IMG/VR virus record: IMGVR_UViG_3300015371_000007
Span: 1 to 64,000 of that record
Direction: 5' to 3' (one strand)
Origin: a virus
DNA length: 64,000 bases
Below, piece after piece: positions 8,072 to 63,800 of the stretch (the first letter of the stretch is position 1; the number at the start of each line of letters is the position of its first letter). The notes below the pieces were generated by a model. The model had not been told where the DNA came from. It was given only the letters and a program-made list of their open reading frames with translations, and did no database searches. The position numbers were made by a program, and so were the translations under genes.

Positions 8072-8088
8072 ATCAAAAGGAGCGAGCG

Positions 8089-8571: not shown

Positions 8572-8583
8572 GGCACGAGCGCT

Positions 8584-8877: not shown

Positions 8878-8881
8878 CGTC

Positions 8882-8992
8882 GTGAAGTTGCAACGCCTGT
8901 GGGTCTGCATCAAGTGCCGCATCTCGCAGCGGGCGTCGAAGCGCCCGAAGTGTCCCGGCTGCAACGCGCGGATGGTCGAGGCCAGGGCGTGA
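8882..8992 (+). CDS. Tiny Zn-ribbon protein (MKLQRLWVCIKC...KCPGCNARM)
   Basis: Two CxxC pairs; stop overlaps the next GTG. Confidence 0.5.
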   Translation: MKLQRLWVCIKCRISQRASKRPKCPGCNARMVEARA

Positions 8993-9291: not shown

Positions 9292-9680
9292 CGACGTTCA
9301 TCGTGTTGGGCCCGGCGAGCACCAAGGGCTCGACCGTGTCGTTCATCGGCGCCACCGGGCGGGTCGTGACGAAGGCCGACAACCAGGGACTGGCGAGCTG
9401 GACGCAGGCGGTCGGCTGGGCCGCACGTGCGGCCGGCGTGCGGTGCGCGCCGCGCGACGTCGCCATCCAGATCGTGGCGATGTTCCAGTTCGTGCGGCCA
9501 GAGAGCCGGAAGCATCGGGTGACGCCGACCGTGAAGCCGGACATCGACAAGCTGACGCGCGCGCTGCTTGATGCGCTGACCGGCGTCGGCTACGTCGACG
9601 ACGCGCAGGTCGTGAAGCTGCTGGTGGAGAAAGTCTACGGCGTGGACGCACGGACATGGGTACAGGTCGAGCAACTATGA
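9288..9680 (+). CDS. rusA: RusA-family Holliday junction resolvase
   Basis: KPDIDKLTRALLDALTGVGYVDDAQVV signature. Confidence 0.9.
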   Translation: MTTFIVLGPASTKGSTVSFIGATGRVVTKADNQGLASWTQAVGWAARAAGVRCAPRDVAIQIVAMFQFVRPESRKHRVTPTVKPDIDKLTRALLDALTGVGYVDDAQVVKLLVEKVYGVDARTWVQVEQL

Positions 9681-31501: not shown

Positions 31502-31923
31502 TGCCGAAGAAGCAGACCCCCGAGCCGGCGTGGAGCGACACGCCCACCCCCGCGCAAGTGCGGATGCTGGCGCAGCAGCGCTTCCTCGCGGAGCGCTCGC
31601 GTCCGGCGGAGCCCTTGCCGCTGCCAGGGCAGCGCCTCGCCCCGCCGACGCCCGATGCGCTGGCGAACACGGCAGAGGCCGAGCAGTACGGCGCCCCCTC
31701 GCCGTGGATGGTCGGACGCCCGCGTCCCTCGCGCACGCCGACGATGGGGCCGTCCAAGCGCACGCCGGCCGCGACGATCTATGACGCGTGGCAGATGGTG
31801 AAAGACCAGCCCGTCATGCGGCTGCTCGGCGCCGGCAAGGACCTCATGGACTACAGCGACCAGCGGTTGTGGGCGGCGTTTGAGTATCCGGGCGACCAAG
31901 TCGCCAAGTGGTTCGGCAAGTGA
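31501..31923 (+). CDS. Pro-rich hypothetical protein
   Basis: 140 aa, coupled to terL. Confidence 0.55.
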   Translation: MPKKQTPEPAWSDTPTPAQVRMLAQQRFLAERSRPAEPLPLPGQRLAPPTPDALANTAEAEQYGAPSPWMVGRPRPSRTPTMGPSKRTPAATIYDAWQMVKDQPVMRLLGAGKDLMDYSDQRLWAAFEYPGDQVAKWFGK

Positions 31924-33656
31924 TGACCGATCCGTTCCTCGCTGATCTTGTGCGGCGCAACGAAGACCTGCAGGCGGTGCTCGCCGAAGCGCGCGGCTGG
32001 AAGATCACGCGCTACTTCCACGACTGCCTCCCCGGCTGCGACCCGACGTCGCTCGATCCCGCCGACCACCTCCCGCGCAAACCGGACCAAGGCCCGACCT
32101 GTCGCGTGCTCTACCGCAAGGCGGTGCGCTGGCTCCGAGCCGGCGCGGCGTATCCGGAGCGCGGCTTCATCGCGGCGAACCGCATCGGCAAGACCGACAC
32201 CGCGGCGTACGAGATCACGTGTCATCTCACGGGCCGCTACCCGGCGTGGTGGGAAGGCAAGCGCTGGGACCGCCCGACGGATTGGCGCGCGGCCGGCGAC
32301 ACGATGCTCACCACGCGCGACATTCTGCAGAAGGCGCTGCTCGGGCCGCACGAAGGCGTGCCGGTGAACGAGTGGACCGGGATGATCCCTCCGCGGCTCG
32401 TGCTCGACGTCACGCGCAAGAGCGGCGGCATCACCAACTGCATCGACACCGTGCACGTGCGCCACGTCTCGGGCGGGGTCTCGCGGTTGTCCTTCCTGTC
32501 GTACGACATGGGACGCCGCGTCTTCCAGGGCTTCGACTGCGACGGGTTCTGGATTGACGAGGAGCCGCCTGACCCCGCCGAGCGCTCCGAGGCGTTGGCC
32601 GCGGGCTCGACCGACATCTACGGCGAGTGCCTGCTCCGCACGATGACGACCGACGGGATCGTGCTGGCGACGTTCACGCCGCTGCGCGGCTGGACCCCGT
32701 TCATGCGCGCCTACTTCGCGGCCGCGCTGATGCCGGGCACCGAAGACGACGAGGTCGACGTGCCGGCGACCGCCGCGATGGCCTCGACGCCGGAAGGGCG
32801 CGCCGCGGAAGCGGACGAAGAGGGCTTCGCCGTCAAGTCCGACCGCGTCGCCCAGGTCGCCGAGGTCAATCCCTACGCGAACGTGCGGCCGCGGTTCATC
32901 ATCGGCGCGACGTGGGATGACGCGCCGCACCTGACCGAGAAGGTCAAGGCGCAGCAGTGGGCGTCGATGCTGCCCTATCAGCGCGCGGCCCGCACCAAGG
33001 GCATTCCCCAGCTCGGGGCCGGCGCGGTCTATCCGATCGACGAGGCGGATCTGAAGGTCAGCGACTTCGTGATTCCCGACCATTGGTGGCGCGGCTTCGG
33101 GATGGACGTGGGCGGCGGCGCCAAAGCGACGGCCGCGGTGTTCTGCGCGCTCAACCCGGAAGACCGCGTGCTCTACGTGACCAGCGTCTACAAGCGCGCG
33201 AGCAATGAGCCGAGTCTCCACGCGGCCGCGATGAAAGAGCGGATGCTCCGGCCGACCGGCTGGTTGTGGCCGGGCGTCGGCGACGCGGCGGCGCTGATCA
33301 TGACCGACCACGACGCCGAGCAGCTGGTCTACGTCTATCGGCGCTTGGGGCTCGACCTGCAGCTGCCCGACAAGGCGGTCGAGACGGGGATCGCGGATCT
33401 GTGGGACCTGATGGTCACCGGGCGCTTCAAGGTGCTGGCGTCGTGCCAGGCGTGGTTCGACGAGTTCCGGATGTACCGCCGCGACAGTCGCGGCCGCGTC
33501 GTCAAGAGCAACGACCACTTGATGGACGCCACGCGCTACGTCGCGCGCACCGGCATCTGGAAGATGAAACGCAAGCCGGCCAAGCCGACCGGCGAGGACA
33601 ACAAGATTCTGCCGTTCGACCGCAACAGCGTGTCGCTCGGCTGGATGGGCGGATGA
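31923..33656 (+). CDS. terL: Terminase large subunit (P22-like)
   Basis: Walker A AANRIGKT, Walker B FWIDEEPP, TFTPLRG, nuclease GMDVG...DHLMDATRY. Confidence 0.95.
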   Translation: MTDPFLADLVRRNEDLQAVLAEARGWKITRYFHDCLPGCDPTSLDPADHLPRKPDQGPTCRVLYRKAVRWLRAGAAYPERGFIAANRIGKTDTAAYEITCHLTGRYPAWWEGKRWDRPTDWRAAGDTMLTTRDILQKALLGPHEGVPVNEWTGMIPPRLVLDVTRKSGGITNCIDTVHVRHVSGGVSRLSFLSYDMGRRVFQGFDCDGFWIDEEPPDPAERSEALAAGSTDIYGECLLRTMTTDGIVLATFTPLRGWTPFMRAYFAAALMPGTEDDEVDVPATAAMASTPEGRAAEADEEGFAVKSDRVAQVAEVNPYANVRPRFIIGATWDDAPHLTEKVKAQQWASMLPYQRAARTKGIPQLGAGAVYPIDEADLKVSDFVIPDHWWRGFGMDVGGGAKATAAVFCALNPEDRVLYVTSVYKRASNEPSLHAAAMKERMLRPTGWLWPGVGDAAALIMTDHDAEQLVYVYRRLGLDLQLPDKAVETGIADLWDLMVTGRFKVLASCQAWFDEFRMYRRDSRGRVVKSNDHLMDATRYVARTGIWKMKRKPAKPTGEDNKILPFDRNSVSLGWMGG

Positions 33657-35393: not shown

Positions 35394-37898
35394 ATGCCGA
35401 AGCGCCCAATTCAGACCGTCCGTCCGAGCCCGTCGGACGATCTGCCGCCCGGTGCCGTCGGGGCGACCCTCGCCTCGAACCGCCCCGGCACTCTGACGCA
35501 AGCCTCCGCCGAAGAACTGGCGGAAGCCACCGCGCGCACCCAGCAAGAGAAGGCCGACGCCTTCATCGCCATCGCCCGCAAACGCTGGCGGCAAAGCGCC
35601 AGCAGTGAAGCCGAGCTGCGCAAGGACATGCTCGACGACCTGCGGTTCTACAACGCCGAGCAGTGGCCCGACAACATCCGGCTCGATCGCGTGCTCGACG
35701 GGCGTCCGTGTCTGACCATCAACCGGCTCCCGCAGTTCGTCCGACAGGTCCTCAACCAGGCGCGCCAGCAGCGGCCGGCGATTCAGTACAACCCGATCGA
35801 CAACGGGGCCGACGTCGACACCGCCGAAGTGCTGCAGGGCATCGCGCGCAGCATCGAGCGCAACTCCAACGCGCCGATGGCCTACAACACTGCCAACGAG
35901 CATCAGGTCATCATGGGCCGCGGGTGGCTCCGCGTCCGCGCCGACTGGATTGCCCACGATAGCTTCGACCAAGAAATCCTCATCGAGAGTCCCGAGGATC
36001 CCTTCATCGTCTATCCCGACGTCGCCGCGGGGAAACCCGATGGCAGCGACGCGCTGTGGGGCTTCCTCATCGCGCGCGTGCCCTGGTACGAATACAAGGT
36101 CAAGTACCCCGGCGCCGCCAAGGCGTCGATGTCGGACTGGACGAGCATCGGCGATGAAACCGCCGAGTGGGTCAATGAAAGCGGCGTGCTCGTCGCCGAG
36201 TATTACTACATCGACATGGTGCCGGCGGAGCTGGCCGAGTACTACGTCGACGTCGGCGCGCCGACCCCGCTCAAGATCACCACCTATCGCGACGTCATCC
36301 GCCCCGCCGACACCAAGCCCGGTCCGAACGGGGAGCCGCCGCGCGTCACGATCATCCGCACCCGCGAGACCGTGCGCCGCCAGCTCCGGTGGGCGACGAT
36401 CAACGGGCTCGAAGTCCTCGAAGGCAACGCCGACAAGACCGCCGGCCGCGATCTGCCGGGCCCCTTCATCCCGCTGGTGCCGGTCCAAGGCGAGAAGCTC
36501 GTCGTCAACGGCAAGCGGAACCTGCGCGGCATGGTCCGCGACGCCAAGGATCCCCAGCGGACCTACAACTTTTGGGTCAGTGCCGAGACCGAGCTGATTG
36601 CGCTGGCGCCGCGCGCGCCGGTCATCGGCGCGGTCGGCCAGTTCGAGTCGACCAAGGAGCAGTGGCTGCAGGCGAACCGCCGCAACTTCCCCTTCCTCGA
36701 ATACGACCCGATCGACGTCAACGGCAACCTCGTGCCGGCGCCGCAGCGCAACGCCTTCGACCCCAACATCAGCCCGATCGTCGCCGCCACCCAGCAGGCC
36801 GACATGGACCTCAAGTCCGTGATCGGCATGTTCGACGCGTCGCAGGAGCGCAGCCGCGAGCAGTCCGGCAAGGCGATCCTCGCCCGCCAGGCGCAAGGCG
36901 AACAGGGCACGTCGCATTTCCTCGCCCATCAGGCCTTGTCGATTCAGCAGGTCGGCCGGATTCTCCTGCACTGGATCCCGGTCTACTACGACCAGCCGCG
37001 CGTCATCCGCATCGTCGGCATCGACGACCGCGAGCGCGACGTGCTGGTGCACGCCGGCAATCCCGACGGGGCCGACCAGGCGCAGCAGCAGCTCAAGGAC
37101 GACCCGCTCATGCAGGCCGTCTCGTCGGGCGCCATCTACGACGTGGGCGTCGGCCGCTACGACGTCGGCGTCTCCGTCACGCCGTCGTTCCAGTCGCGCC
37201 GCGCGGAGTCAGTCGAGGCGATGACGTCCCTGCTCCAGACGTTCCCGCTGGCGGCACCCTACGCGCTCGACGTGATCACGAAGAACATGGACTGGCCGGG
37301 CGCGCGCGAGCTGTCCGAGCGCTTCAAGCACCTCGTGCCGGCCGAAGCGCGCGAGCCGGAGGACGGCAGCAAGCCGCTCCCGCCCGAAGTGCAGGCGCAG
37401 ATGGGGCAGATGCAGCAGCAAATGCAGCTGATGGGGCAGCAGCTCGAAGAGCAGCAGAAGATCATCGACACCAAGGCGACCGAGCAGGCCGGGCTCGCCA
37501 AGATCCGGCAGATGGAGCTGGAGTCCAACGAGCGCCTCGCCAAGATGAAGGGCGAGATCGAGATCGCCAAGGTCGAAGAGAAGGCCCGCGCCGAGGCCTC
37601 GCTCACCCTCCTCGAAGCCAAGCTCAAGGAACTAGAGAACCAGCAACTCTTCCTCCACGAGCGCAAGCTGCAGCTCGAAGCGCCCCAGCCCGGCGAGAAG
37701 GCCGCGCCCGAGAAGCGCCAGGTCTCGGAGAGCTTGAACTACAAGGACGCGCCGCCGGACGTCCGCCGCCAGATCGAGAAGCAGGCGGGGCTGGTCCCGT
37801 CGAAGCACAGCGATCTGGAGGTCAAGAAGCTGAAGGAAGAGGCCAAGCCGAAGCCGGCCCCGGCCGCAGTGAAGAAGAAACCCGATTTGAAGGCGTAG
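35394..37898 (+). CDS. Portal protein (P22 gp1-like)
   Basis: DDLRFYNAEQW, RPCLTINRL, GMVRDAKDPQRTYNFW, SGKAILARQ, C-terminal coiled-coil barrel. Confidence 0.95.
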   Translation: MPKRPIQTVRPSPSDDLPPGAVGATLASNRPGTLTQASAEELAEATARTQQEKADAFIAIARKRWRQSASSEAELRKDMLDDLRFYNAEQWPDNIRLDRVLDGRPCLTINRLPQFVRQVLNQARQQRPAIQYNPIDNGADVDTAEVLQGIARSIERNSNAPMAYNTANEHQVIMGRGWLRVRADWIAHDSFDQEILIESPEDPFIVYPDVAAGKPDGSDALWGFLIARVPWYEYKVKYPGAAKASMSDWTSIGDETAEWVNESGVLVAEYYYIDMVPAELAEYYVDVGAPTPLKITTYRDVIRPADTKPGPNGEPPRVTIIRTRETVRRQLRWATINGLEVLEGNADKTAGRDLPGPFIPLVPVQGEKLVVNGKRNLRGMVRDAKDPQRTYNFWVSAETELIALAPRAPVIGAVGQFESTKEQWLQANRRNFPFLEYDPIDVNGNLVPAPQRNAFDPNISPIVAATQQADMDLKSVIGMFDASQERSREQSGKAILARQAQGEQGTSHFLAHQALSIQQVGRILLHWIPVYYDQPRVIRIVGIDDRERDVLVHAGNPDGADQAQQQLKDDPLMQAVSSGAIYDVGVGRYDVGVSVTPSFQSRRAESVEAMTSLLQTFPLAAPYALDVITKNMDWPGARELSERFKHLVPAEAREPEDGSKPLPPEVQAQMGQMQQQMQLMGQQLEEQQKIIDTKATEQAGLAKIRQMELESNERLAKMKGEIEIAKVEEKARAEASLTLLEAKLKELENQQLFLHERKLQLEAPQPGEKAAPEKRQVSESLNYKDAPPDVRRQIEKQAGLVPSKHSDLEVKKLKEEAKPKPAPAAVKKKPDLKA

Positions 37899-38464: not shown

Positions 38465-38524
38465 GGGCGCCTCGTGAGACCGCGACTCATCTCGCGGATT
38501 CACGACGGCGCCCTTTCTTTTTTC
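38465..38524 (+). terminator. Long hairpin with U-tract (intrinsic terminator/attenuator) before the scaffold gene
   Basis: GGGCGCC-TCGTGA-..CCGCGA / TCGCGG-..TCACGA-.GGCGCCC followed by TTTCTTTTTT. Confidence 0.65.
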
Positions 38525-38551
38525 GCGGGTTCGTCCTGCGCCGTGGAGCCG

Positions 38552-39604
38552 ATGCCAGACGACACGATCACGCTGATCTCGACCACCGACACGCCGGAGC
38601 AGGTCACCGCCGCGCTGACCGGAAAGCCCGTGGAGGCGCCGGCCACGCCTCCGCCGGCCGCGCCCGTCGACGAGGCCGCGCCGCCGCCCGCGCCGCCGGC
38701 CGAAGAAACGCCCGAAGAGCGCGACACGCGTGAAGCCTCCGAGGCCGGCAGTCGGCTCGCGAAACGCAAGGCCAAGATTCAGGACGAGATCGATGAGCTG
38801 ACGCGCAGCAAGCACGCCGTGCGGCGCGACGTCGAAGCCGAGGAAGCGCGCCTCGCCGCGCTCCGGGCGGAACGCCCCGCGATCGATCCGTCGCACGCGC
38901 CCCGCGCCCAGGCGCCGCCCGAGCCCGCGGTCGCCGCGCCGCCGGACGAGACCCGGCCCGAACCGAAGCTCGACGCCCTCGACGACAAGGGCGTCGCCAA
39001 GTACGCGACGTACGAGGACTACCTCAGCGACCACGCGAAGTGGACGCGCGAAGAGGCGGTCGCCGCCGCCAAAAAGATTGTCGAGCAAGAAAAACTTGCC
39101 GAGCGCGAACGCATCGAACGCGACTCGGCCTCTCGTGTGGTCAACGAACATCTCGCCACCTACAACACCGACCTCGAGACGTTCAAGAAGACCCACGCCG
39201 ATTTCGATGCAGCGTTCGACGACGCGAAAGACGCGGTGCAGGAGACGTTGATCGGCCTCGGACCCAATGCCTTGAAGATCATCGACGGCTACACCGTCTT
39301 TGACGCCGAGGACGGGCCGGCGCTCACCTACTACCTCCTGAAACACCCGGACGAACTGAAGGCGATCGCGCTCAAGGCGCCGCACCAGCAGGTCGTCCAT
39401 CTCGCGCGCCTCGACGAACGTCTCCGCAGCGGGACCGCCAAAGCCACCGGCACGTCTCCCGCCGCACCAACACCAACCAGGGCCCCCGAACCTATTAAGC
39501 CGGTGGGATCGGGCCCTACGGCCACCACGGTGCCGATCGACGAGGAGTCCTTTCAGGACTACAAGCTGCGTCGCGAACGCGACCTGCGCGCCCGACGCGC
39601 CTAA
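38552..39604 (+). CDS. Capsid scaffolding protein
   Basis: KIQDEIDELTR, PEPKLD..., GPALTYYLLKHPDE, TRAPEPIKPV; position between portal and coat. Confidence 0.85.
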   Translation: MPDDTITLISTTDTPEQVTAALTGKPVEAPATPPPAAPVDEAAPPPAPPAEETPEERDTREASEAGSRLAKRKAKIQDEIDELTRSKHAVRRDVEAEEARLAALRAERPAIDPSHAPRAQAPPEPAVAAPPDETRPEPKLDALDDKGVAKYATYEDYLSDHAKWTREEAVAAAKKIVEQEKLAERERIERDSASRVVNEHLATYNTDLETFKKTHADFDAAFDDAKDAVQETLIGLGPNALKIIDGYTVFDAEDGPALTYYLLKHPDELKAIALKAPHQQVVHLARLDERLRSGTAKATGTSPAAPTPTRAPEPIKPVGSGPTATTVPIDEESFQDYKLRRERDLRARRA

Positions 39605-39673
39605 GTCCAGAAGTACCGCCATCCGTCTCGCGCAATGCGTGGAGCCGCCAGCAACTCGCTGATGAGGGCTCCG

Positions 39674-41020
39674 ATGAGGAAAGTTCTGCTCCGTTGGCTC
39701 CAGAACAACACGTTCTGCTGGGCCGTGTCGGCTGTCGTGACGTTCGTGGTGTATCTGCTGATCCAGCAGGGACACGACGCACGCGGCCTCAGTTACGCCG
39801 ATAACACGCTCCTGACGATTTCGATGATCACGCGCGAAGCGCTGCGGATCCTCGAAAACAACCTGTCGTTCACCAAGCGGATCAACCGCCAGTACGACGA
39901 CAAGTTCGCGATCGAAGGCGCGAAGATCGGCTACGTCGTCAACGCGCGTAAGCCCGTGCGCTACATCGTGTCCACCGGCCAGGCGCTGGCCCTGCAGGAT
40001 GCGACCGAGACGCAGGTTCCCGTGGCGCTCACCACGCAGGACCACGTCGACTTCCAGTTCTCCTCGGCCGACCTGAAGCTGTCGATCGACGACTTCGGGG
40101 ATCGCTTCATCCAGCCTGCCGTCGCCGCGCTGGCGAACAAGATGGATTTCAACGGGCTGCAGCTCTACAAGCAGATTTTCAACGCGGTCGGCACCCCCGG
40201 TGTCAACGTCGCCGACCTCCTGACCTATCTGCTCGCGGGCGTGAAGCTCGATAACAACGCGGCGCCGCAGGACGAGCAGCGCTACGTCGTCATCACGCCG
40301 AAGATGCAGGCGTACGTCGTCGACGCGCTGAAGGGGCTGTTCCAGCAGTCGACGGCGATCGCGACGCAGTACACGAAGGGCACGATGGGGATCGCCGGCG
40401 GCTTCACGTGGGCGATGGATCAGAACTGCCCGACCCACGTCAGCGGCACGTTCGCCGGCTCGCCGACCGTCAGCGCCGTCGCCGGCCAGACCGGCAGCTC
40501 GATCGACACGATCGCCTGGACCGCTGGCCCGTCGCTCAAGAAGGGCGACACCTTCACGATGGCGGGCGTTTTCTCGGTCAACCCGCAGTCGCGCCAGTCC
40601 ACCGGCGACCTGCAGCAGTTCACCGTGACGGCCGACGTCGCGTCGGCGGGCACAACCCTGACGATCGCGATCTCGCCGCCCATCATCACCAGCGGCGCCT
40701 TCCAGACCGTCTCGAACTCGCCGGCCGCGAGCGCGGCGATCGTCTACAACGCCGGGAGCGGCGCCTCGGGCGCGACCGGATCGTCCTCGCCCCTCGGCCT
40801 GGCGTTCCATCGCGACGCGTTCACGCTCGTCACCGCGGACCTGCCCGTGCCGAAGGGCACCGACATGGCCTCACGCGTGAGCGACAAGCAGCTCGGGATC
40901 TCGCTGCGCATCGTGCGCGACTACGACATCACGACCGACCAGTTCCCGTGCCGCATCGACGTGCTGTACGGCTGGGCGGTGCTGCGGCCTGAACTGGCCT
41001 GCCGCATTTACTCCGCGTAA
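39674..41020 (+). CDS. Major capsid (P22 coat-like) protein with a ~41-aa hydrophobic N-terminal leader
   Basis: NTLLTISMITREALRILENNL, FIQPAVAALAN, LAFHRDAFTL, CRIDVLYGWAVLRPELACR. Confidence 0.95.
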   Translation: MRKVLLRWLQNNTFCWAVSAVVTFVVYLLIQQGHDARGLSYADNTLLTISMITREALRILENNLSFTKRINRQYDDKFAIEGAKIGYVVNARKPVRYIVSTGQALALQDATETQVPVALTTQDHVDFQFSSADLKLSIDDFGDRFIQPAVAALANKMDFNGLQLYKQIFNAVGTPGVNVADLLTYLLAGVKLDNNAAPQDEQRYVVITPKMQAYVVDALKGLFQQSTAIATQYTKGTMGIAGGFTWAMDQNCPTHVSGTFAGSPTVSAVAGQTGSSIDTIAWTAGPSLKKGDTFTMAGVFSVNPQSRQSTGDLQQFTVTADVASAGTTLTIAISPPIITSGAFQTVSNSPAASAAIVYNAGSGASGATGSSSPLGLAFHRDAFTLVTADLPVPKGTDMASRVSDKQLGISLRIVRDYDITTDQFPCRIDVLYGWAVLRPELACRIYSA

Positions 41021-41045: not shown

Positions 41046-41657
41046 ATGGCTCTTACTCGGACGACTCTCTCAGGCGGCTGCTCGGCGACCGATTTCGAGA
41101 TCCTGGTCGCCAGCATCGCCGGCCTCAGCGTCGGCAGTTCGCTGAAGTGCGACGGGGAACAGATGCGCGTGCAGGCGATTGGGTCGTCCGCCGCCATCCC
41201 GGTCAAGGTCCTACGGGGCGTCGGGGGCACCGCCGTGGTCGCCCATCCGGCGAGTGCCGGCGTCGTCTTCGGCGATCCCGCGGACTTTCTCTACAAACCG
41301 CAGTCGGGCGGCAAGGGGCGCGACGTCGTCAGCTACAGCGCCTCCGGCGCGCTCACGCTGCCGGTCGCGGGGCGCGACGTGGTCGCGATCCTCAACGGCA
41401 CCGGCGCGCTCGCGATGACGCTCGCCGATCCGTCGAAGGAAAACGACGGCGACATGCTCTTCATCGCGAGCAACGGCAAGGCCGCGCATACGGTCACCAC
41501 GACGACTGGCTACGGTGACGGCGGCGCGTCCTACGTGAAGTTCACGTTCGCGGCCGGCGCCCGCAACGTACTCAACCTCGTAGCCATCAACGAACGGTGG
41601 GTGACGAGCCTTATCGGCGGGACCGCCACGGCGATCACGACGACGGTCTCGGCCTAA
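41046..41657 (+). CDS. Putative head decoration/cement protein, paralog 1
   Basis: Directly after the coat gene; beta-rich; highly similar to the next gene. Confidence 0.6.
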   Translation: MALTRTTLSGGCSATDFEILVASIAGLSVGSSLKCDGEQMRVQAIGSSAAIPVKVLRGVGGTAVVAHPASAGVVFGDPADFLYKPQSGGKGRDVVSYSASGALTLPVAGRDVVAILNGTGALAMTLADPSKENDGDMLFIASNGKAAHTVTTTTGYGDGGASYVKFTFAAGARNVLNLVAINERWVTSLIGGTATAITTTVSA

Positions 41658-41672
41658 CGGGAGGACAGGTCA

Positions 41673-42290
41673 ATGGCTCTAGTGCGGACAACTCTTTCAG
41701 GAGGCGTCGCGGCGACGGATCTGGAGATCCTGCTCGCGTCGCTCACCGGGCTCACCGTCGGCAGCACCCTCAAGATCGACGCCGAGCAGTTTCGCGTGCA
41801 GGCGCTGCCCTCAGCCGCGACCGTACCGGTCAAGGTGTTGCGCGGCGTGAACGGCACCAACGTCGCGGCCCATCCGACCGGCGCGGGCGTCGTGGGGGGC
41901 GATCCTGCCGACTTCGTGGGCAAGCCGCTCGCGCTTTCGGGCCGCGCGCGCGACGTTATCAGCTACAGCGCCTCGGGCGCGCTGACGCTGCCGACGCCGG
42001 GCCGCGACATGGTCGCCATCCTCAACGGCACGACCTTGCGTGCGATGACGCTGGCAGTGCCGACGAAGGAAAACGACGGCGACATCCTCATCGTCGTGGG
42101 CAACGGCAAGGCCGCGCACACGGTGACCATCAGCGGAGGCCTCGGCGCCGCTGGCGCTGGCTACACGGTCGGCACGTTCGACGTCGGCGCACAGTGCTCG
42201 ATGGAGTTTATCGCGGCCAACGAGGTGTGGGTGCCGCTGGGCTCGCCCATGTCGGGCACCCTGACCGCGGCGGACGTCGCCGTCGCGTAA
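41673..42290 (+). CDS. Putative head decoration/cement protein, paralog 2
   Basis: MALxRTTLSGG...SYSASGALTLP...KENDGD shared with paralog 1. Confidence 0.6.
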   Translation: MALVRTTLSGGVAATDLEILLASLTGLTVGSTLKIDAEQFRVQALPSAATVPVKVLRGVNGTNVAAHPTGAGVVGGDPADFVGKPLALSGRARDVISYSASGALTLPTPGRDMVAILNGTTLRAMTLAVPTKENDGDILIVVGNGKAAHTVTISGGLGAAGAGYTVGTFDVGAQCSMEFIAANEVWVPLGSPMSGTLTAADVAVA

Positions 42291-42295
42291 CGGTG

Positions 42296-44077
42296 ATGAC
42301 CGCGAACACGCGCGGGATGAGCGCGGCCCTGCTCGGGGCCGCGCTCCTTCTGTGGAGTGCGCCGACCGCGGCGCAGATCCTCGGACAGGACAACATCACG
42401 GCGAACGGCCAGGCGGTGGCGTTCATGGCGATCCCGGCGAACACCGGGGCCGTCACGTTCACGATCTCGGGCACGTGGACGGGCACGTTGCAGCTGGAAG
42501 TCACCGCGGACGGGACGAATTGGGTGGCGGCGGCGGCACTGCCCTCATCCGGCGGCGCCACGGTCAGCTCGACGACAGGGACGGGCGTCTGGTCGATTCT
42601 CAACTACGGGTTCGTCGGCTTCCGCGCGCGCGCGAGCGCTTTCGCGAGCGGCACGGCGGTCATCTCAGCGACGGCAGGGAAACAGGTCACGCTCAGCGGC
42701 GCCGTCACCGTCAGCGACATCACGTCGAGCGGGCGAATACTGCTCGCCAACGGGACGGCCAACGCGCCTAGTCTCAGTTTCTCTGGCGCGACGACGAATG
42801 GGCTCTGGAACAATGCCGGCCTGCCGACCTTTTCGGTGCTCGGCTCGGCCCGCGTGGGCTGGGGCTCCAGCACGATCGGGATGCAGCTCGACTCGGCCTA
42901 TCCGCTCTCGTGGAGCGGCACCACACCCGGCAACCCATCCGACGTCCTGCTCTTCCGCGACGGCGCGGGCGCGCTCGGGTTACGGCAAGGTGCGAACCAG
43001 CAGCGGGTCAACATCTATAACACCTACACCGACGCGAGTAACTACGAGCGCGGGTTCGCGTTGTGGAACGCGAATGCGTTCGTGATTGGGACGGAGTTTT
43101 TGGGCAGCGGGTCGGTGCGTTCGATGGCCTTCTCGACGCCCGCGTCGGGGAACATCTTCATGAGTCCCGGCAACTCCGACAAATGGATGTTTCAGGGGCT
43201 GGGGCACATCACGGCCGTCACCGACAACGTCTACGACATCGGCGCGAGCGGCGCGAACCGGCCGCGCAACCTCTTTCTCGGTGGCACCGTGACGGCCGGC
43301 GGCACGGTCAACACGGGCGCCAACTTCGGCATGAACTCCGGCGGGTCGATCGTGTGGGCGAGTCGGTCGGTGATCAACTCTCCTGCTGACGGCGTCGTCA
43401 CGCTGTTGAATAACACGTCCACGGATTTCACGCGCCTCAATTTCGGCGGGACCACGAGCGCGTTCCCGGCCATCTTTCGCAACAGCAACTTCCTTCAGAT
43501 CGGGCTGGCCGACGGCACGGGCGCGTCGACGGCGATCTCGTCGGGCAGCATCTCCAGCGGGCAGGTGCAGGTTAGCGGGCAGGCGATCACGGCTGGCTCT
43601 GGCGCGGGGATCACGCTGAACAATGCCGGCACCACGACCCGGCAGGTCTACAAGGTCACGATCACGCCCGCGGCCTTCATCTGCAACGCCGTGACGTGCG
43701 ACATCACGATCGCGACGATCCCTGACAAGACGCTACTCGCGGGCGTGCTGGCGGACATGACCCAGGTCTTCGCGTGCGCCGCCGTGTGCACGAGCGCGAC
43801 CTTGTCGTTCCAGCTGGGCACCGGATCTGGCGGCACCCAATTCCTCGCGTCGTTCGACGCGGATGCGGCGATCGGACGATTCGGCACCACCGACGCGCAG
43901 ATGGGCACCTTGAACAACAGGGCCGCAGCCGTTCAGGGCGGGGTGTGGATTTCTGGCGGGACGCAGACCGTGGTCCTGCGATTGACGAGCGGCACGGGCG
44001 TGGTCGGCACCGGCGCGGCGACGAATCTCTCGCAGGGCAGCATCACCTTCTATCTCATCACCGACCGACTGCCGTAG
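42296..44077 (+). CDS. Fibre-like structural-module protein with a Sec-type signal peptide
   Basis: MTANTRGMSAALLGAALLLWSAPTAA|QILG; GTANAPSLSF and DNVYDIGASGANRPRNLF fibre-like motifs. Confidence 0.7.
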   Translation: MTANTRGMSAALLGAALLLWSAPTAAQILGQDNITANGQAVAFMAIPANTGAVTFTISGTWTGTLQLEVTADGTNWVAAAALPSSGGATVSSTTGTGVWSILNYGFVGFRARASAFASGTAVISATAGKQVTLSGAVTVSDITSSGRILLANGTANAPSLSFSGATTNGLWNNAGLPTFSVLGSARVGWGSSTIGMQLDSAYPLSWSGTTPGNPSDVLLFRDGAGALGLRQGANQQRVNIYNTYTDASNYERGFALWNANAFVIGTEFLGSGSVRSMAFSTPASGNIFMSPGNSDKWMFQGLGHITAVTDNVYDIGASGANRPRNLFLGGTVTAGGTVNTGANFGMNSGGSIVWASRSVINSPADGVVTLLNNTSTDFTRLNFGGTTSAFPAIFRNSNFLQIGLADGTGASTAISSGSISSGQVQVSGQAITAGSGAGITLNNAGTTTRQVYKVTITPAAFICNAVTCDITIATIPDKTLLAGVLADMTQVFACAAVCTSATLSFQLGTGSGGTQFLASFDADAAIGRFGTTDAQMGTLNNRAAAVQGGVWISGGTQTVVLRLTSGTGVVGTGAATNLSQGSITFYLITDRLP

Positions 44078-54821: not shown

Positions 54822-57800
54822 GTGCCGTCACTGCTGAACCTGGGCACCTTCGGCCGGCTCGCGCAACTCTTTCAGCGCAAGAAGCCGCGCGACGCCTTTC
54901 TCGAGAATCTCGACGAGCAGTGGGGCAACGCGTGGGGCACGCAGCCCGATGCGTCGCCCCCCTCGCGCGATCCGTGGCTCGACCAGATCGCGTCGCAGTA
55001 CCCCTTCGGCGCGTTCGACGAACCGGCCGCGCCCGCGCCCGCGCCGGAGCTGGCGATGCCGCAGCCGGCGCAGCCGGAGCCCGCCGACGATCTCGCCGCC
55101 CGCATCCGCGCCAGCCTCGGCCTCGGCGATACCGACGAGGACAACAGCCTGCTCGCGCAAGTCGAGAGCACGCTGCGGCGCCAGCCGTATGTGCAGCCGC
55201 CAGCGCTGCCGCCGGCAGCGTTGTCGCCGACGGGCGCGCCGCCCGCGTCACGGCCTCCGATCTCGCTAGCGCCGCCAGACATCGCGACGATTGGCGCGAA
55301 CGTGTCGCCGCTGCCGCCGTGGCAGGCCGCGCGCCGGCCCGCGCAGGACGTGCACTTGCCGTCCGAGCCGCCGCCCGCGCCCCCGCCGCCGATTCCGAGC
55401 GGACCGGTCGACATGGCGACCGCGGGCGCGAATGTCTCGACGCTGCCGCCGTGGGCCGCAGCGCGTCCGCCCGCGCGCGATGTGCGCCTGCCGGCGCCTG
55501 GGGCGCCCCCCGCGCCCCCGCCCGCGCCGCCGATGGATGTGGCGACGGTCGGCGCGAATGTGTCGCCGCTGCCGCCGTGGGAAGCCGCGCGGCGCGCTCG
55601 TGATCAACAGTTGCCGCCGACCGCCCCCGCCGAGGATCGGTTGACGACGACGGAGACGATTCCGCAGCTCGCGACGCCGGAGGGCTACGCGCCGCCCCGG
55701 CAGGATGTGTTCAAGGAACGGCTCGCGAGGGTGGTTCAGCGGATGGCAGACGAAGGCTATCCCGTGAAGGTCACCAGCAAGACGCGCACGGCGGCGGAGC
55801 AAGCGAAGCTGTACCAGCAGGGCCGCGACGGCGCGCCTGGCAAGATCGTGACATGGGCCGACGGGACGACCAAGATCTCCAAGCACCAGACCGGCACCGC
55901 CGCAGATCTCGCGTTCGTCGTCGACGGTCGCCCGTCTTGGGACGACAAGTTGCCGTGGCCGCTGCTCGGGCGCATCGCGAAGGAAGAAGGACTGGTGTGG
56001 GGGGGCGACTGGTCTAAGCAGAAGAATGACCGCCCCCACGTCCAGCTGGAGGCCGAGGCCACGCAAGAGGGCCCGTACGCGGCGGCGAAGCCGCTGCCGC
56101 CGAAGCTCCACGGGGCACCGCCGCCGCCACCCGCGGCCCCGCTCCCCACGCCGCCGTCGCCCCCCGTGCCGGTCACCACCGCGGAGGCAAAGAAGGATCC
56201 GTTCGGCTTCGTCGATTTCATCAAGAGCCTCTACACGACCGACGGCGTCGGCATGGTGCCGATCGGCGGCACGCTGATTCCGGTACCGGGCCTGCCGCAA
56301 GTCACCGAGGCGGGCGCGGAGAAGCTACCGTGGGCCGGCGCCGCGTTCGCGGCGGCGGATGCCTACCAGCTCATTGCGGCGGCGCGCCGGCTCCGCGATG
56401 GGAAAGCGACGGCCGCGGACCAGGCGCTTATCGAACAGTACGCCGCCAAAGAACAGGAGATGGCCGAGCACGGCACCTCGTGGGGCTACAACGTCGCGCA
56501 GATCGTGACCGAGATGCCGGCGTTCATGATCGAGATGCTGTCGACCGAGGGTGTGTTCACCGGGGCGCGCACGGCCGGAAAGAAGGCGGCGCAAGAGGCG
56601 ATCGGGAAGCTCCTCAAGGAGTCGGCCGCGGAAGTGATGGCGCGCCGTTCGACGCGATGGGCGACGAAGGTCGCCGAGACCGCGGTGGGCGCCGCCGCAC
56701 AGGAAGCGGCGATGCCCACGCGCGTCGTCGCGAAGATGATGGACTACGTCAAGCCGCCGCTCCATCCGTCGCTGAGTCCGGAGGACCAGCGCCACGTCGA
56801 GGCGGCGACGAAGGCGTACGAGACCATGCGCGGACAGCACGACCACCTCACGGGCGTCTACGACACCGTCGCGGCGCAGCTCCAGCCGGCGCTCGACGAA
56901 ATCGACACGATGAAGGCGCAAGTCGATGCCTTGCGCGCACACGTCAACCCGAACAATCCGGTCAGCGTCGCCGGCTACAACGCCGCGCTGAACGCCCTGA
57001 ACGCGCGCATCGCGCAAGTCCAGCCGCAGCTCGATCGCCTGAAGGCCGACAACGGCCAGATCGTCGATCTTGAGCGCCAGATGCGGACGCACTCGGCCGT
57101 GATGGACAAGGCCGACCAGAAGACGCTGCAGGACACGCTGAAGGAATGGGACGACGATTTCCTCCCGGCGCTCTTCCGCGCCATCCCGGACCAGTTCATC
57201 GAGGTGTTCACCGAGCACGCGGGCGAAGCGATCGAACCGGTCGCGCAGTTGATCGGCGGCAAGCTCGCCAAGACCGCCGTCGGCAAGCAGGTCACCGCGC
57301 TGAAGACCGCGTTGCTGGACGACTGGCTGAAGCTCGCGCCGGGCAACACCATCAGCAAGTGGGTGAAAGAGATCCGCCAGGGCGCGGGCTACAACGGCGT
57401 GCTCGGCGAGTACGGCGAAGAGCGGCTGGCCGACATCATGCGCGCGGCGATGCCGTTCACGCGGCAGGCGGGCGAGCCCAACGCCGCGATGATTCGCATG
57501 ATCACCGGCGAGCCCACGCCGGGGGCGCCCGAGGGCGAGAGCCCTCGTCGCAGCGCGGCGAAGGAGTGGCTCTACCAGACCACGCAGGAGCTGGCCGCGT
57601 TCGCGATCCCCGATGTCATCACGCACGCGGCGGAGCATCTGCCCGCGCCGGGGCAAAAGCCACGCGCGTTCACCGTGCCGAAGGACGTCACGGCCGACGA
57701 ACTGGTCGACCTCCGCCAGCGGCTGCAGGTCGCCCGGCAGAGCGTGCGGGCCGTCGACGACGTGAAGGAGTTGGACTCGCGGATCGCGAAGGTCGACACC

Positions 57801-60800
57801 GCGATCGCCGCCAAGATGCCGCCGTCGGCAGAGGGCCGACCTGTCCGCGAGCCGGCGCCGGCCGCTCCGTCAGGCTCCGAGGCGGCTCCGCCGACGGCGG
57901 CACTCCCCGACACCGTCGTCGAGACGCTCAAGAAGATGGGGCTCACCGATCCCCACCTCGCGGACCTCACCTCGCTACAGGCCGCGTCGATCCTCAGTCA
58001 CAGCGACCGCGGCGCGCTGCACGACCCGGAGGCTGCGGCGAACACCGATCCTGCGGCGCCGCGCACGCTGCGCAGCACCCCCGACTCGGTCGCGCACGCG
58101 GAGACGCTGGTTGAGACCTTGCGCGCGGGTGATCGCGTGACCGACAGCCGTGGGCGCGAATGGCATGTCACGCAACATCCAGTGGCCGGCGGCGGCACCG
58201 TCACGGGCCTGAGTGCGCGCGACGCGGATGGGCCGCAACCGGGCGCGGCGTTCCGCGATGCGTCCGGCGAGTGGCGCCACAACCCGGTCGTCACGGCGAT
58301 CGTCGAGCGCGGGCGCATCACGCGCGGCCGCGCGATCCCACCGAAGGTCACCGGGTTCACCACGGCGAAGGGCAGCGTCTACACGGTCGCCGGCAGCGGC
58401 ACGAGTCGGGCGAAGACGGCGACCGGCGAGAGCTTCGGGCCGTCGGACCGCACGGTGTATCTCGACCCCAAGACCGCCGAACGCGCGCAGCTCCATCTCG
58501 ACAACCACGACGAGGGCGAGACCACCGCGCGGCCACACATCCTGGCCGGTGGACGCATTGGCATCGTGGTCAAGAACCGCAAGACCGGCGAGGTGCGCAA
58601 CGACCTGTCGCGCATCGTGCGCGGCTCGACGACGCCGGCCGTGGGTCTGCATCCCTTCGAGGTGTGGACGAAGGACGCGGAGGGTCGACGTCGCTGGCAC
58701 TTCGGCAACGCGATCACGGAGGTGCAGACCGACGCGCCGACCGCGCCGGCCGAGAAGCCGACCGCGGTCTTCGCCTTCCACCAGCCCGACGAAAAGGGCG
58801 GTGCGCTGCCGATGTATCACGTGCAGGGCGGACCGCTCCATCGGTCGACGGTCTCCGCCGACACGCTGCGCGAGCACGGCATCGACGTGCCCGAGACGCC
58901 AAAGTTCGAGGGCCGCAAGCCGGCCACGCCGACGCCCGCCGATGCGCCACTCGGCGAATGGCAACCGATCGTCGGCCTTGAGGGGCATCGCGTCTACACG
59001 AGCGCAAAGGCGCGCTCGGTCGCTGGGCGAAACGTGGTGTACCTCCAGGCCGAGAGCAAGGATGGGAAGCGTCAGGCCTTCTATCTCGATGTTCACGGCA
59101 GCACGCGCAACGTCGACACGGTCGACGCGGTGGCGGGGGGCGATCCGTATGGGCCGAACGGCGAAGCCCCGGTGTGGAACGCCCCGACGATCGCGGCGGC
59201 AGAAGAAGTCGCGCGGCTGGTCCACTGGCAACGCGTCCATCTCACGGACGCGAGCGACGCCGAACTCGACGCGGTCTCGGCGCGGATAAAAGAGATCGTC
59301 GCGCGCACCGAGCCCGCCAAGACCGAGACGCCGAAGCCGGAAGACAAGCCCAAGACCGAAGCGAAGCCGACGAAGCCCACGTCGGAGATGAGCGACGCCG
59401 AGATCGCGCAGGCGATTCTGGACCGTCTCAAGGCCAAGGGCCAGAAGGTCGCGCCCACAACGGCCGCGCCCGAGACGTCACGCCGCGCGCCCGCCTCACG
59501 GCCCGCCGAGAGCCAGTCGACCGATCCGAAGGCGCAGGCCCGCGCCGAGCGGGCGCGGCTCATCGCCGAGTTGAAGAAGGAGCAGGCACAGGCGAAGGAG
59601 AAGGCCGACACGTCGTCGACGCCGTTGAAGCAAACGGACGAGGACGTCGAGACGCCGCTGTATCACGCAGAGGAAGAAGCCCCGTCGCCGAAAGCCGTCG
59701 AGCGCATGGTCGGCATCGTGCGCAGCTACCTGAACGAGGGCATCACCGATTTCACCGCGGCGGCGCGCCAGTTCCAAGAGGACTACGGCGAGGACGCGCG
59801 CACGCTGGACGCGGCGCTGGAGCTGGGCTGGGAGATGCTCACGGGGCACACCGTGAGCGTGGCCGACGCCCTGGCTCCGCCGACGCAGGCTCCCGAACCA
59901 CAGTGGCGCGACAACCTCCCCGAGGACGACGCCGAGACGATCGCGAACGACCCGGTCGAGGTGTTGGAGGCGACGCTCCGCGAACAGGTCCAGCGCGGCA
60001 AGCGCCTGCGCGAGTGGGAAGCGAAACTCGTCGACAAGCAGGCGCAGATCGCGAAGCTCGAGAAAATCAAGAACCCGACCCGCAAGCAGCAGAAGACGCT
60101 CGTCAACAATCGGAAGAAGGTCGCCGAGGAATATCCGCGCCGCATCGCCGAGGCGAAGCTCGACATCGAAGAGACGTGGGAAGAGCTGGACCGGCTGATG
60201 ACCGGGATCGACCTGGCCGACCTGCGCGCGCGCGTCGCGCGAAACCAGATCAAGCTGCGCACCCGGCGCACTTTCGCCGATGCGTACGAACAGCTCCTCA
60301 ACGACCTGACGCCTGAAGCCCGCAAGAATGCCGAGCACCACTTCGGACGGGCGACCGCCGGCCGCGACGTGCGCCACTTGCGCGTCGCGATGCAGATCTA
60401 CGAGTTGCTGCTGGCGGACGATGGTCCCGAAGGCGGCGAGGCGGAGGCCAAGCGGCTGCTCGACGCGACCAACGCCTACTACGCCGACAAGAGCTATCTC
60501 GCCGAGACGCACGAGGGCCGCGAGACGGAGCACGACGCGTTCTACGCGGCGCTGCACGACGCCGCGGTGCTCGTCTCCGGCAAGGAAGATTTTGACCCGA
60601 ACGATCTCGACGAATGGTCGGCGGGCGACTACGTCGACCCGAGCGAAGTCGGCACGCTGATTTTCCGCACGCTGGATCCGCAGACGGCGTCATTCGACGT
60701 CGATGAGTTCCATCGCGCGTATACCGACATTGAGTTCCGTCGCGAGCCGGACAGCACGTTCCCTCCGCCGGATACGTCGGTCAATCTGCTGCGCGCGAAC

Positions 60801-63800
60801 GCGTCCGGGCCCATGCACACGAAGGCCGAGGGCGCGGCGCAGATCGAGCAGTGGAAAGCCGCCGCGCAGGAGGCTGGCCGCACACAGGACAACTCGCGGA
60901 AGATCATCCTCTCGCTGTACGACCGCACCGGCATCATCTCGAAGCCGTGGGAAGAGGCGGGCTACAGCGTGCGGCGCTTCGACATCTCGCCGAAAGCGGA
61001 TGGCGGCACGGCCGAGGACCTGACGGAGTTCGGCAACTGGATGGCCGAGATCGAGGAAATGCTCGGCCAGGGCTATCAGATCGTCGGCGTGCTCGCGCAG
61101 CCGCCCTGCACGTCCTTCACCGACTCTGGCAATTCGCATTGGGACGCGCTCCATGACACCCCCAACGAGGAGTGGCTGACGCGCACCTACGGCGAAAAGG
61201 CGACCGAGTTCTTCGATCGGCCGATCGATTACGCGAACACGCTCGTGGCGGTGGTGAAGCTCGTGGTCGCGCAGGCGAACCCACGGTTCTACATGATGGA
61301 GAACCCGTTGGGGCGCATCGACCAGCAGAACCAGCTGCCGGAGCCGACGCTGTCGTTCAACCCGTTCGACTTCGGCGAGCCGTTCTCGAAGAAGACGCAG
61401 ATTTGGGGCGAGTTCAACCCGCAGCTGCCGACGTTCCGAGTGCCCGGCTCGAAGGAGGAAGGCGGACAAGGCAGTCGCACGTGGAATCTCTCCAGCGCGC
61501 GGAAGTACGAGCGCGAGATGACGCCCGAGGGATTCGCCTACGCGTTCTTCATGGCGAACCAGGCAGCGGCGCAGGAGGAGTGGGCCAACCAAGAGCGACC
61601 GCCCTACAGCGTGCCGCCGCCGGGCCAGAAGTACGACCCCACCAACCCGGACCCCGATCTGATCACGACGCCGGCCGCGTTTGGTGACGAGGAGATGCCG
61701 GAGCTGACGCCTGAGCAAGCGGCAGCGCAGCGCGCCGAGGCGATCCGCAAGCTGAAGGAAGGTGCCGGCGCGCCGCCAGCGTCGCGGCCCGCTGAGAGCC
61801 TCCCGACGACGCCGGCCGACGACGGCCAGCGTTACGTCGTCTCCAGCAAGCGCGGGCCGACGCGCAAACTCGGCACCGGCGGGGTCTGGCAGGACACGCA
61901 CTACGTCACCGGCGAGATCACGGCGACCGGTCCCGACTGGACCGACAAGCGCGACGCGGCGCGGCCGCTGACGAAGGCCGAGGTCTATCAGATCGTGCAG
62001 GGCGCCGCCGAGCCGGAGGCGCTCAAGATCACGCACGCCGACGACGCGTCGAAGACGGTCACCATCGGCGAGGTGCAGGGCTACGTCGGCCAGGATGACG
62101 AGGACAACGCGATCTACGACCCCGACAAGGCGTGGGGCGCGCGACCCGCGCCCGCGTCGCAGCCGCCCCGGTCGCGGCCCGTCGAGAAGCCCACCGACGC
62201 GTACGACCGCGCCTTCGCCACCGCGCTGAAGCCCGACGATCCCCGATGGGCGCCGCTGCGCGAGACCGGGGCGACGGAGTCACAGATCCTCGACGTGGTG
62301 CGCGAGGTGTTTCCCGAGGGCACGACGTCGTATCACACGCACCCGGACACGGGCTGGGCCTTCGAGATCACGGGCGGCATGGTCCCGAGGGTCGTGGGCA
62401 CCGCCGGCACCACAGGCGTCCGCGTCAGCGAAGTCGGGCGTCATCTCGCCGTCCAAGTCAGTCGCGCCCTCGACATCCCGTTGAACTACGAGGCGCGGCC
62501 GAAGGCGGAGCCGAAGGGGCCAGCGGTCCAGTTCACGCTCGACCAGCACCCGTTCACGGCGAAGGTCACGTTCAACCGGTCGGAGACCAACCCGCTCTAT
62601 CGGGCGGTCATCACGCGCGAAGGCAAGCGCGTCCACGAGTATGAGACCGTCGACCTCGACGACGCGGACACGTGGCTCACGCGCCAGCTCACGCAGACCG
62701 TGGAGGCGTTCAACGCGTCGCCGCGCGTCACCATCTCGCCGGCCGACCACGAGACCGTCAAGACCTACCTGCAGGCGCTCGGCTACAACAACGTCACGCA
62801 GCACAAGGACGGCTCGCTCACGGTCCGCGCGACGGAGGGTCGGCAGCGGTTGGTGTTCCGCGCCACGCCCGGCACCGTCCGCCCCGATACGGGCGGGCCG
62901 AGCATCCGGCGCGACGTCGAGCGCCAGGCCGGCGCGCTGGTCGTGCGCGCGCACAACAAGACGCAGGCCTCGACCGCCGCCTTCAAACAGTTCGAGGCGG
63001 ACCTGAAGCAGTTCGCCACCGGTCGGCCGTTGCCGTCGGCGTCGATGGTCCGGAACGACTCGCGCGAGAAGGCGCAGCCCGGTGGCGTCATCGAGCTGCC
63101 GCCCACGCCGCCGCCGTCCCCTGACGCGACCCCGCAGCGCGACATCGCGTCGCTCCCGCGCGGCACCGCGCCGCCGTGGCAGATGACGCGCAAGGCGTTC
63201 CGCGACGATCGCCGCGCCTACACCGTGCCGAAGGGCAACATTTTCGCCTCCACGCCCGAGGACGTCATGTCCGGGGCCGCGCTGAAGGATCGCAGCCGGG
63301 ACGAGTTGATCGCGTTCGCGCAGTACAGCGGCGTGCCGACGAAGGGCTCGAAGGAGAAGCTCGCCAACCGCATCCAGTCCGTGTGGCGCGTCCGGAGCTT
63401 CCTCGCGGGCCAGACGGTCCAGACCCTCTCGAAGTATCCGCAGAGCGATCTGAACCGGATGCACAAGCTGACGCATCGCGGGAAATCCGCGTCCTTCGCC
63501 GGCAAGGGCGGGCAGGCGATGTCGCTGCTCAAGTGGCTCGCGACGATCCGGAAAAACGGCTTGGACATGATGGCGGACGCCATCCACGAGCTGCACGTCC
63601 GGAAAGCCCTGAAAGACGGGCTGGACGTCCCCGCCGAGGTGCTCAAGGACTACCCGGAACTGGCAAAGGAGGTCGCCGGTGGCGACATTGACAGCACGAC
63701 AACGGGCGCGCCAGGATCGACTGGTGACCAACCGGCGTCCGGTGCCGCCCCGACAGGAGCTGCTGGCACAGGTCAAGGACCTGCTGCGGGCGGGCGTGCC

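Follow-up and report, generated by a model that had tools for sequence, protein, structure and literature searches.

The shell proteins of tailed phages are textbook soluble proteins of the cytoplasm, and their capsids must be built inside the cell. The coat gene of one uncultured soil virus raises the question of what an N-terminal leader resembling a membrane-insertion signal is doing in front of such a protein. Behind this leader, the mature coat is an ordinary member of the P22 family, and the leader is undescribed for that family in the literature found. More broadly, a search of the open-access literature yielded no report of an HK97-fold capsid protein that carries a transmembrane or secretion-type leader.

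The record in which the gene lies (IMGVR_UViG_3300015371_000007) comprises 94,546 bp with 68% G+C, and CheckV estimates its completeness at 93%. The window, by which we mean the whole stretch of DNA analysed here, is the first 64 kb of this record. Rhizosphere metagenome DNA runs share part of the sequence words of the window; among the runs listed as sharing words with it, all are rhizosphere DNA runs and none is an RNA sequencing run.

The head module and its coat protein

The head genes of the window follow the order large terminase, P22-like portal, scaffolding protein and coat (Table 1), and the PF11651-type coat gene is present in a single copy in the 94.5-kb genome. A neighbouring protein of the structural module, encoded at 42296-44077, carries a textbook Sec signal at the N-terminus of its translation.

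Table 1. Positions in the window of the head genes and of the parts of the coat precursor.
Feature	Coordinates	Strand	Evidence or remark
Large terminase gene	31908..33656	+	Terminase_6N and Terminase_6C profiles
P22-like portal protein gene	35394..37898	+	PF16510, E 1e-153
Scaffolding protein gene	38474..39604	+	phrog_8865, E 6e-21; stop 69 nt upstream of leader ATG
Shine-Dalgarno motif GAGGG	39664..39668	+	Read directly; 5 nt before leader ATG 39674
Coat precursor ORF, 448 residues	ATG 39674 to 41020	+	Leader, mature coat and stop codon
Leader n-region, 13 residues, net charge +3, motif M-basic-x-x-L-L-x-x-L-[RQ]-[NS]	39674..39712	+	Translation, alignment
Leader hydrophobic helix, 17 uncharged residues with conserved Ser and Tyr	39713..39763	+	Hydropathy, AlphaFold2, alignment
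Leader linker (c-region), 12 residues ending G-L-S-Y-A	39764..39799	+	Junction alignment
Mature P22-type major capsid protein, residues 43-448, and stop codon	39800..41020	+	PF11651, phrog_283, Foldseek

The family assignment of the coat rests on several concordant lines of evidence. The PF11651 profile matches with 132.7 bits (cut-off 24) and spans residues 43-445 of 448, and phrog_283 matches with an E value of 3e-79. Both matches begin at residue 43, which corresponds to position 3 of the PF11651 profile and to position 2 of phrog_283. An AlphaFold2 model of the coat (mean pLDDT 71) finds its best Foldseek matches in the coats of CUS-3, P22 and Sf6, with E values of about 1e-19 to 1e-15 and TM scores of 0.55-0.65. 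By its profile, its HK97-like fold and its position in the head module, the window coat is a P22-type (PF11651) member.

The likeness to P22 gp5, Sf6 gp5 and the CUS-3 coat thus covers the mature sequence profile, the predicted fold and the place of the gene behind portal and scaffold. One family trait is missing, namely the start at the N-arm with Met, a small residue and N-T-L-L. The described P22-type coats begin at the N-arm, are leaderless and remain unprocessed, whereas in the window coat 42 residues including a hydrophobic helix precede the N-arm, with no Met at the junction. No cultured phage with a coat more than 50% identical to this one was found.

Where translation of the coat begins

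Several claims of an earlier note on this DNA concern the start of the coat gene, and they agree with what we find. The note had described the family's usual start as devoid of a start codon, and there is indeed no Met at the junction; after Y-A, the window continues with D-N-T-L-L-T-I-S-M-I-T. It had further placed a ribosome-binding site ahead of ATG 39674, which is the GAGGG at 39664-39668, and had read a basic n-region, a 17-residue hydrophobic helix and a linker in frame with the coat, as the translation of 39674-39799 confirms.

From ATG 39674 up to the junction, further start-type codons in frame are limited to four GTGs within the hydrophobic helix, none of them with a Shine-Dalgarno motif. 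Upstream, the open frame extends back to 39605 and includes two more ATGs (39635 and 39662), both lacking such a motif. Relatives have a stop in this frame 9-15 nt ahead of the leader ATG, which excludes ATGs further upstream, so that in close relatives no other start can serve. A GAGG or AGGAG is found 5-9 nt before the leader start in every leader-bearing locus examined. On these sequence grounds, translation must begin at ATG 39674, adding 42 residues to the coat.

The surroundings of the start also indicate how the leader is placed. In a search of cluster representatives, leaderless relatives align their residue 2 to residue 43 of the window coat. The distance from the scaffold stop to the leader start is 50-90 nt, which resembles the spacing between scaffold and M-A-N-T start in leaderless loci; since this spacing is unchanged, the leader appears as an insertion between an unaltered intergenic region and the coat.

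Two other arrangements were considered and rejected. An internal start near the junction (GTG, ATG or TTG) occurs in some loci only, without a Shine-Dalgarno motif, and is absent from the window. A separate gene for a small membrane protein is not seen in leaderless loci either, as the gap between scaffold and coat also measures 50-70 nt there and contains no extra ORF.

Conservation, selection and turnover of the leader

The earlier note had proposed an alignment of homologous coats as a means of checking whether leader and junction are conserved across a clade. They are, both among the best homologs and at the DNA level. A homologous leader is found in 70 of the 120 best listed homologs (59-98% identical), a share inflated by the leader-bearing query, and the extension has a mean length of 43 residues. 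The other homologs among these 120 start with M-A-N-T-L-L-T, M-S- or M-P-, exactly at the junction. A search of 50%-identity cluster representatives gives the wider picture: of 5,872 family members at E<=1e-3, about five of the best 150 carry the leader and about 145 begin at the N-arm, so that the leader marks a narrow sub-lineage.

The leader was recovered in thirteen independent DNA loci, nine of them with the longer form (L064, L065, L089, L144, L145, L175, L002, L078 and L151) and four with a shorter variant (L014, L022, L169 and L088). Pairwise dN/dS values by the Nei-Gojobori method are about 0.2-0.5 for the leader and 0.1-0.27 for the mature part. The leader thus evolves faster than the mature part, yet it is under purifying selection as a peptide. 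Its GC3 of 0.81 is coding-like. The leader is real, conserved and selected, and a chance open frame is ruled out.

In a tree of the mature coat parts, leader-bearing and leaderless sequences are interleaved, and Fitch parsimony requires at least six changes, be they losses or gains of the leader. The leaderless pair P0057 and P0062 is nested among leader-bearing sequences with a support of 0.98, and P0055 and P0061 are further nested leaderless homologs. Such interleaving indicates that the leader is a module without which the coat can still fold, and this is what one would expect of a targeting element or propeptide.

At the level of neighbouring genes, close leader-bearing loci share 69-84% identity with the window in the portal, 58-65% in the scaffold and 79-84% in the terminase, and leaderless loci with 63% coat identity reach only 27-48% in these three proteins. 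The leader-bearing loci L002, L078 and L151 are as remote from the window as the leaderless ones. No gene exclusive to leader-bearing loci was seen in the available flanks, in a comparison that is confounded by relatedness.

Membrane-signal features of the leader

All leaders align as a single module. Its consensus opens with Met and a basic residue, continues with x-x-L-L-x-x-L-R-N/S and runs into the helix, in which Ser and Tyr are conserved; after the helix come a Phe, a stretch of polar or acidic residues in which Pro is frequent, and finally G-V-x-x-A. The hydrophobic stretch of the window has a Kyte-Doolittle value of 2.42 over 17 residues and of 1.94 over 19 residues, the latter being the length to which the classical transmembrane threshold of 1.6 applies. 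Across the 69 full leaders, the mean 19-residue value is 1.92, and 61 of them reach at least 1.6. The leader, which had been called transmembrane at first reading, is by hydropathy transmembrane-like in the window and in most of the clade.

The charges on both sides of the helix are asymmetric: every full leader has a positive N-flank and a neutral or negative C-flank, the N-flank has a mean charge of +2.5 and the C-flank of -1.2, and the difference of C minus N is negative in 69/69 full leaders. Together, charge asymmetry and hydropathy look like the signature of a membrane-inserted signal of the N-in/C-out type, and a soluble helix would give little reason for them. The window leader combines a hydropathy of at least 1.6 with positive-inside flanks, as type II signal anchors do. 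Its hydrophobic core measures 17 residues in the window (mean 17.3 and range 17-20 in the clade) and is followed by a linker of about 11 residues in the clade, compared with about 7-15 for the core and 3-7 for the c-region of a typical Sec signal; these values are nearer to those of a signal anchor. AlphaFold2 predicts helices at residues 2-8 and 12-33, the second with a pLDDT of about 77-83, then a break at residues 34-36 and the helix of the N-arm.

Other classes of export signal do not match the leader. The Tat motif S/T-R-R-x-F-L-K is absent; the window reads R-W-L-Q-N, and elsewhere the usual form is L-R-N/S with one Arg, R-R being confined to a few leaders. A lipoprotein signal was likewise rejected, with D, A or G at +1 and no conserved Cys near the junction. 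A search of the ESM Atlas with residues 1-45 returned no usable match.

The junction with the mature coat

The junction was compared in 71 leader forms, that is, in the 70 homologs and the window, where -1 stands for the residue that closes the leader. No other part of the leader is as well conserved, and all 71 forms have Ala at -1 (Ala42 in the window). Position -2 is bulky, with Y in 30, R in 9, Q in 8, L in 8 and F in 7 forms. At -3, S is found 25 times, L 14, M 10, A 9 and V 4 times; S, L, A, V and T together account for 54/71, and the remaining 17/71 (24%) have M, Q, F or N, which are poor residues for signal peptidase I. Gly occupies -5 in 46/71 and Val -4 in 41/71, a conservation that is higher than usual in secretion signals and suggests a structural role or another kind of recognition. 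The leaders of four distant representatives likewise have Ala as their final residue, in one case as A-N-A/A.

On the coat side of the junction, 44 of the 71 forms have D at +1, 15 have A and 9 have G, and Pro never occurs there. Asp at +1 is confined to leader forms, with 44/71 as against 0/39 leaderless forms, and the junction was therefore apparently tuned after the leader had been acquired. A cut after Ala42 would leave D/A/G-N-T-L-L, which is the register of A/S/P-N-T-L-L in leaderless relatives after removal of their Met. The earlier note had put the cut near LSY/A-D, one residue further upstream, before the Ala. This position has to be revised, as a cut after Ala42 (Y-A/D) fits better with the invariant Ala, with the residues at -1 and -3 and with the leaderless register.

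Candidate proteases and the host

The absence of a prohead protease gene, noted earlier for the window, extends to the whole 94.5-kb genome for the S78, S49 and ClpP families, of which none was matched by its profile (PF04586, PF01343 and PF00574); in the search with the S77 profile (PF03420), the control itself was silent. Pfam and PHROG scans of the head module revealed no proteases, and neither rhomboid proteases (PF01694) nor an S26 signal peptidase were matched in the 94.5-kb genome. In a crude hydropathy scan of the genome, no multi-pass membrane protein appeared, and no predicted protein had more than two hydrophobic segments. With no recognised phage protease, any cut would fall to a host enzyme or to an unrecognised phage enzyme. 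The closest genomic relatives of the coat come from Acidobacteria assemblies.

A putative route via the membrane

In the reading that we tentatively prefer, the coat would be made as a precursor from ATG 39674, and its 42-residue leader of the membrane-insertion type would emerge first. The leader may then direct the nascent coat to the cytoplasmic membrane, where a host enzyme would remove it after Ala42, at G-V-x-x-A/D-N-T with -1 and -3 residues resembling those of signal peptidase I sites. The mature coat would thereupon begin in the same register as leaderless relatives that have lost their Met. That the leader is a putative membrane-targeting element removed after Ala42 is a plausible but still tentative conclusion from these sequence features.

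Several known systems each resemble the leader in part, among them Sec signals and signal anchors cut by signal peptidase I. Among phages, the M13 procoat is the precursor of a filamentous phage coat; it crosses the membrane, where leader peptidase cleaves it, and assembly takes place at the membrane. With these signals, including M13 procoat, the window leader shares the basic n-region, the hydrophobic core and the linker with Gly or Pro, as well as the N-positive asymmetry of charge; around the site, it has a small residue at -1, in most cases a small or aliphatic one at -3, and an acidic one on the far side. It differs from them in that core and linker are longer, for example than those on the gene at 42296, and in the 24% share of poor -3 residues. 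Unlike in M13, the leader here precedes a cargo of 406 residues, a shell protein needed in the cytoplasm.

Taken further, this reading would mean that a lineage of tailed phages routes an HK97-fold capsid protein via the membrane-targeting machinery and signal peptidase of its host, with an obligatory assembly step at the inner membrane and a leader clipped by the host. We consider this wider claim possible but rather unlikely. A precedent for a tailed-phage head begun at the inner membrane exists in T4, whose prohead assembly initiates there from the portal gp20 with gp40 and YidC (PMC9958956). In T4, however, the membrane-bound part is the portal, which is peripheral and attached by a chaperone, and the coat has no membrane signal, whereas in the window the signal-like leader sits on the coat. 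The portal, scaffold and terminase of the window show no such signal.

A cut by signal peptidase I raises a conflict of topology. This enzyme cuts on the periplasmic face, and capsids take up DNA in the cytoplasm. Given the N-in/C-out charge of the leader and the location of the enzyme, the coat domain would be exported; standard topology rules thus predict it on the wrong, periplasmic side, a point that the membrane-anchored model of the earlier note had left aside. Three ways out of this conflict are possible. Targeting may be transient, in that the leader is cut early and the coat then slips back or fails to translocate; another enzyme may cut on the cytoplasmic side; or the leader may never enter the membrane at all.

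Alternative readings of the leader

The first alternative is an unlikely one, namely that the leader is translated but neither enters the membrane nor is cut, and forms a helix on the inner face of the shell, comparable to a scaffold or a delta domain. There it could bundle under the capsomers, bind DNA via its basic tip or support a larger shell for a 94.5-kb genome. The N-arm of P22-type coats points inward, where it meets the scaffold, and AlphaFold2 gives a confident helix joined to the helix of the N-arm. The conserved Ser and Tyr within the helix and the motif of the n-region resemble what is expected of a specific protein contact. Several leader-bearing homologs also lie on contigs of 89-96 kb, near the size of this genome, whereas the cultured leaderless relatives have 33-40 kb; the length of a contig is, however, not that of a genome.

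The delta domains of HK97-type phages comprise about 100 soluble, coiled-coil residues and need a prohead protease gene of the phage. They resemble the window leader in being N-terminal extensions of an HK97-fold capsid protein, and the delta domain is absent from the mature lattice; the window phage differs in having no recognised protease gene and a separate scaffold gene. Three points speak against an uncut internal helix. The membrane-targeting machinery of the host classically recognises N-terminal helices of such high hydrophobicity, the charge asymmetry in 69/69 leaders and the invariant Ala at the junction have no obvious reason in a soluble helix, and the repeated loss of the leader in close relatives speaks against a structural role.

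True export appears improbable. In this case, much of the coat would cross the inner membrane for a second job, such as that of a decoy, envelope remodelling or exclusion, and capsids would be built from the fraction that is not exported. In its sequence features and charge asymmetry the leader matches an N-in/C-out signal, and the textbook Sec signal on a structural-module protein of the same phage (42296-44077) fits such a route. On the other hand, the genome has this sole coat gene. Export would come at a high cost for the most abundant late protein, the capsid would be left with uncut precursor, and no conserved internal start could supply a cytoplasmic form.

A third alternative, to which we give only a small chance, is modelled on the Staphylococcus phage 80alpha, in which the host protease Prp cuts the capsid and scaffold proteins at F/A and thereby removes 13-14 residues (PMC5744158). 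Applied to the window coat, a Prp-like host protease would cut in the cytoplasm before Ala42, between an aromatic residue and Ala. The 80alpha capsid protein has the HK97 fold and loses its short N-terminal piece next to an Ala to an enzyme of the host and not of the phage, as the window coat would under this proposal. P1 would be Y or F in 37/71 forms and P1' the invariant Ala. However, the other 34/71 would have R, Q, L, V, M, S, H or A at P1, in contrast to the strict F/A of 80alpha, and the 42-residue, transmembrane-like leader is unlike the L27-like, non-hydrophobic piece of 13-14 residues that Prp removes. The Prp family (PF04327) is moreover absent from five Acidobacteria genomes with related prophages, in a search in which the Bacillus, Lactococcus and Thermotoga controls were matched. 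A Prp-like host protease for the window leader is thus unlikely.

The least probable reading of all, and one that can hardly be upheld, is that the leader is an annotation artefact with the real start downstream, for example at ATG 39824: high-GC DNA does yield long chance open frames, here in 68% G+C, and in the loci L046 and L061 a normal Met start is preceded by a long stretch that is open but not hydrophobic, but ATG 39824, which the earlier note had named as a start that would speak against the leader, has no Shine-Dalgarno motif, the eight residues before it (43-50) are nearly invariant as protein sequence in leader-bearing and leaderless forms, and the leader has its own Shine-Dalgarno motif, a conserved architecture and a record of purifying selection. 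A membrane-targeting leader hence ranks first, followed by the uncut internal helix, export, the Prp-like cut and the wrong start, with the remainder left to mechanisms not listed here.

Implications for head assembly in tailed phages

A conserved and selected leader that resembles a membrane signal contradicts the cell biology expected of a tailed-phage coat. It allows one to ask whether, in some phages, head assembly is tied to the membrane or makes use of the signal processing of the host, and the close relatives with and without the leader are natural controls for this question. For the engineering of P22-type nanocages, a self-assembling shell with a targeting tag that can be removed could also be of use. 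If the route via the membrane is true, the coat described here would be the first tailed-phage shell protein to serve as a substrate of the secretion apparatus.

Leader variants and the start region of the coat gene

Compared with the N-terminal leader that precedes the P22-type coat protein in the window, the one on more distant coat genes of 47% identity (loci L014, L022, L169, and L088) is shorter, at about 30 residues; it ends in G-L-V-L-G/A, is followed by N-N-T or A-N-T, and may represent a reduced version of the same module. In a few leaders (coat proteins P0171 and P0180, loci L089 and L145) the n-region contains an adjacent Arg pair, which recalls Tat signals; most leaders, that of the window included, carry an n-region without such a pair.

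Comparison of window positions 39605-39673 with the relatives revealed that the latter have an in-frame TGA 12-15 nt upstream of the leader ATG. At the position of this TGA the window differs by one base, and as a direct consequence its frame is open back to 39605 and gains two further ATGs (39635 and 39662), either of which gene callers may wrongly pick as the coat start. The listed ORF of the upstream scaffold gene begins at a GTG, and its first 26 residues (38474-38551) look like an over-extension; an ATG at about 38552 (M-P-D-D...) is the more likely start.

Conservation of the coat relative to other head genes

Between the window and the leaderless loci L001, L066-L071, and L147, coat identity is about 63%, as opposed to 35-46% for the portal, 27-33% for the scaffold, and 41-48% for the terminase. 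This far higher conservation of the coat suggests either strong constraint on the protein or exchange of coat genes between phages. In pairwise codon comparison, the mature part of the L145 coat gene (about 7974-9300) shows an abnormally high divergence, with a pN of about 0.59, which points to a frameshift or an assembly error within this copy.

Downstream genes and genome size

Features located downstream of the coat gene
Feature	Position	Length (residues)	Remarks
First tandem paralogue	window 41046-41657	203	directly after coat
Second tandem paralogue	window 41673-42290	205	follows its paralogue
Gene with textbook short Sec signal at N-terminus	window 42296-44077		next after tandem paralogues
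Single open frame	genome 54822-78293 (window 54822-64000)	7,823	continues beyond window

The tandem paralogues show only weak similarity, to the tail or fibre families phrog_1101 and phrog_9851, and may be decoration or fibre proteins; homologs likewise lie 3' of the coat gene in several relatives (L065, L144, L002, L072, and L073). The Sec signal encoded next to them has a hydrophobic core of 11 residues, with T-A-A preceding the predicted cut site, and the coat leader clearly differs from it in its proportions. The giant open frame makes up a quarter of the phage genome. Several leader-bearing homologs are located on contigs of 89-96 kb, and the leader may therefore be associated with this large-genome lineage.
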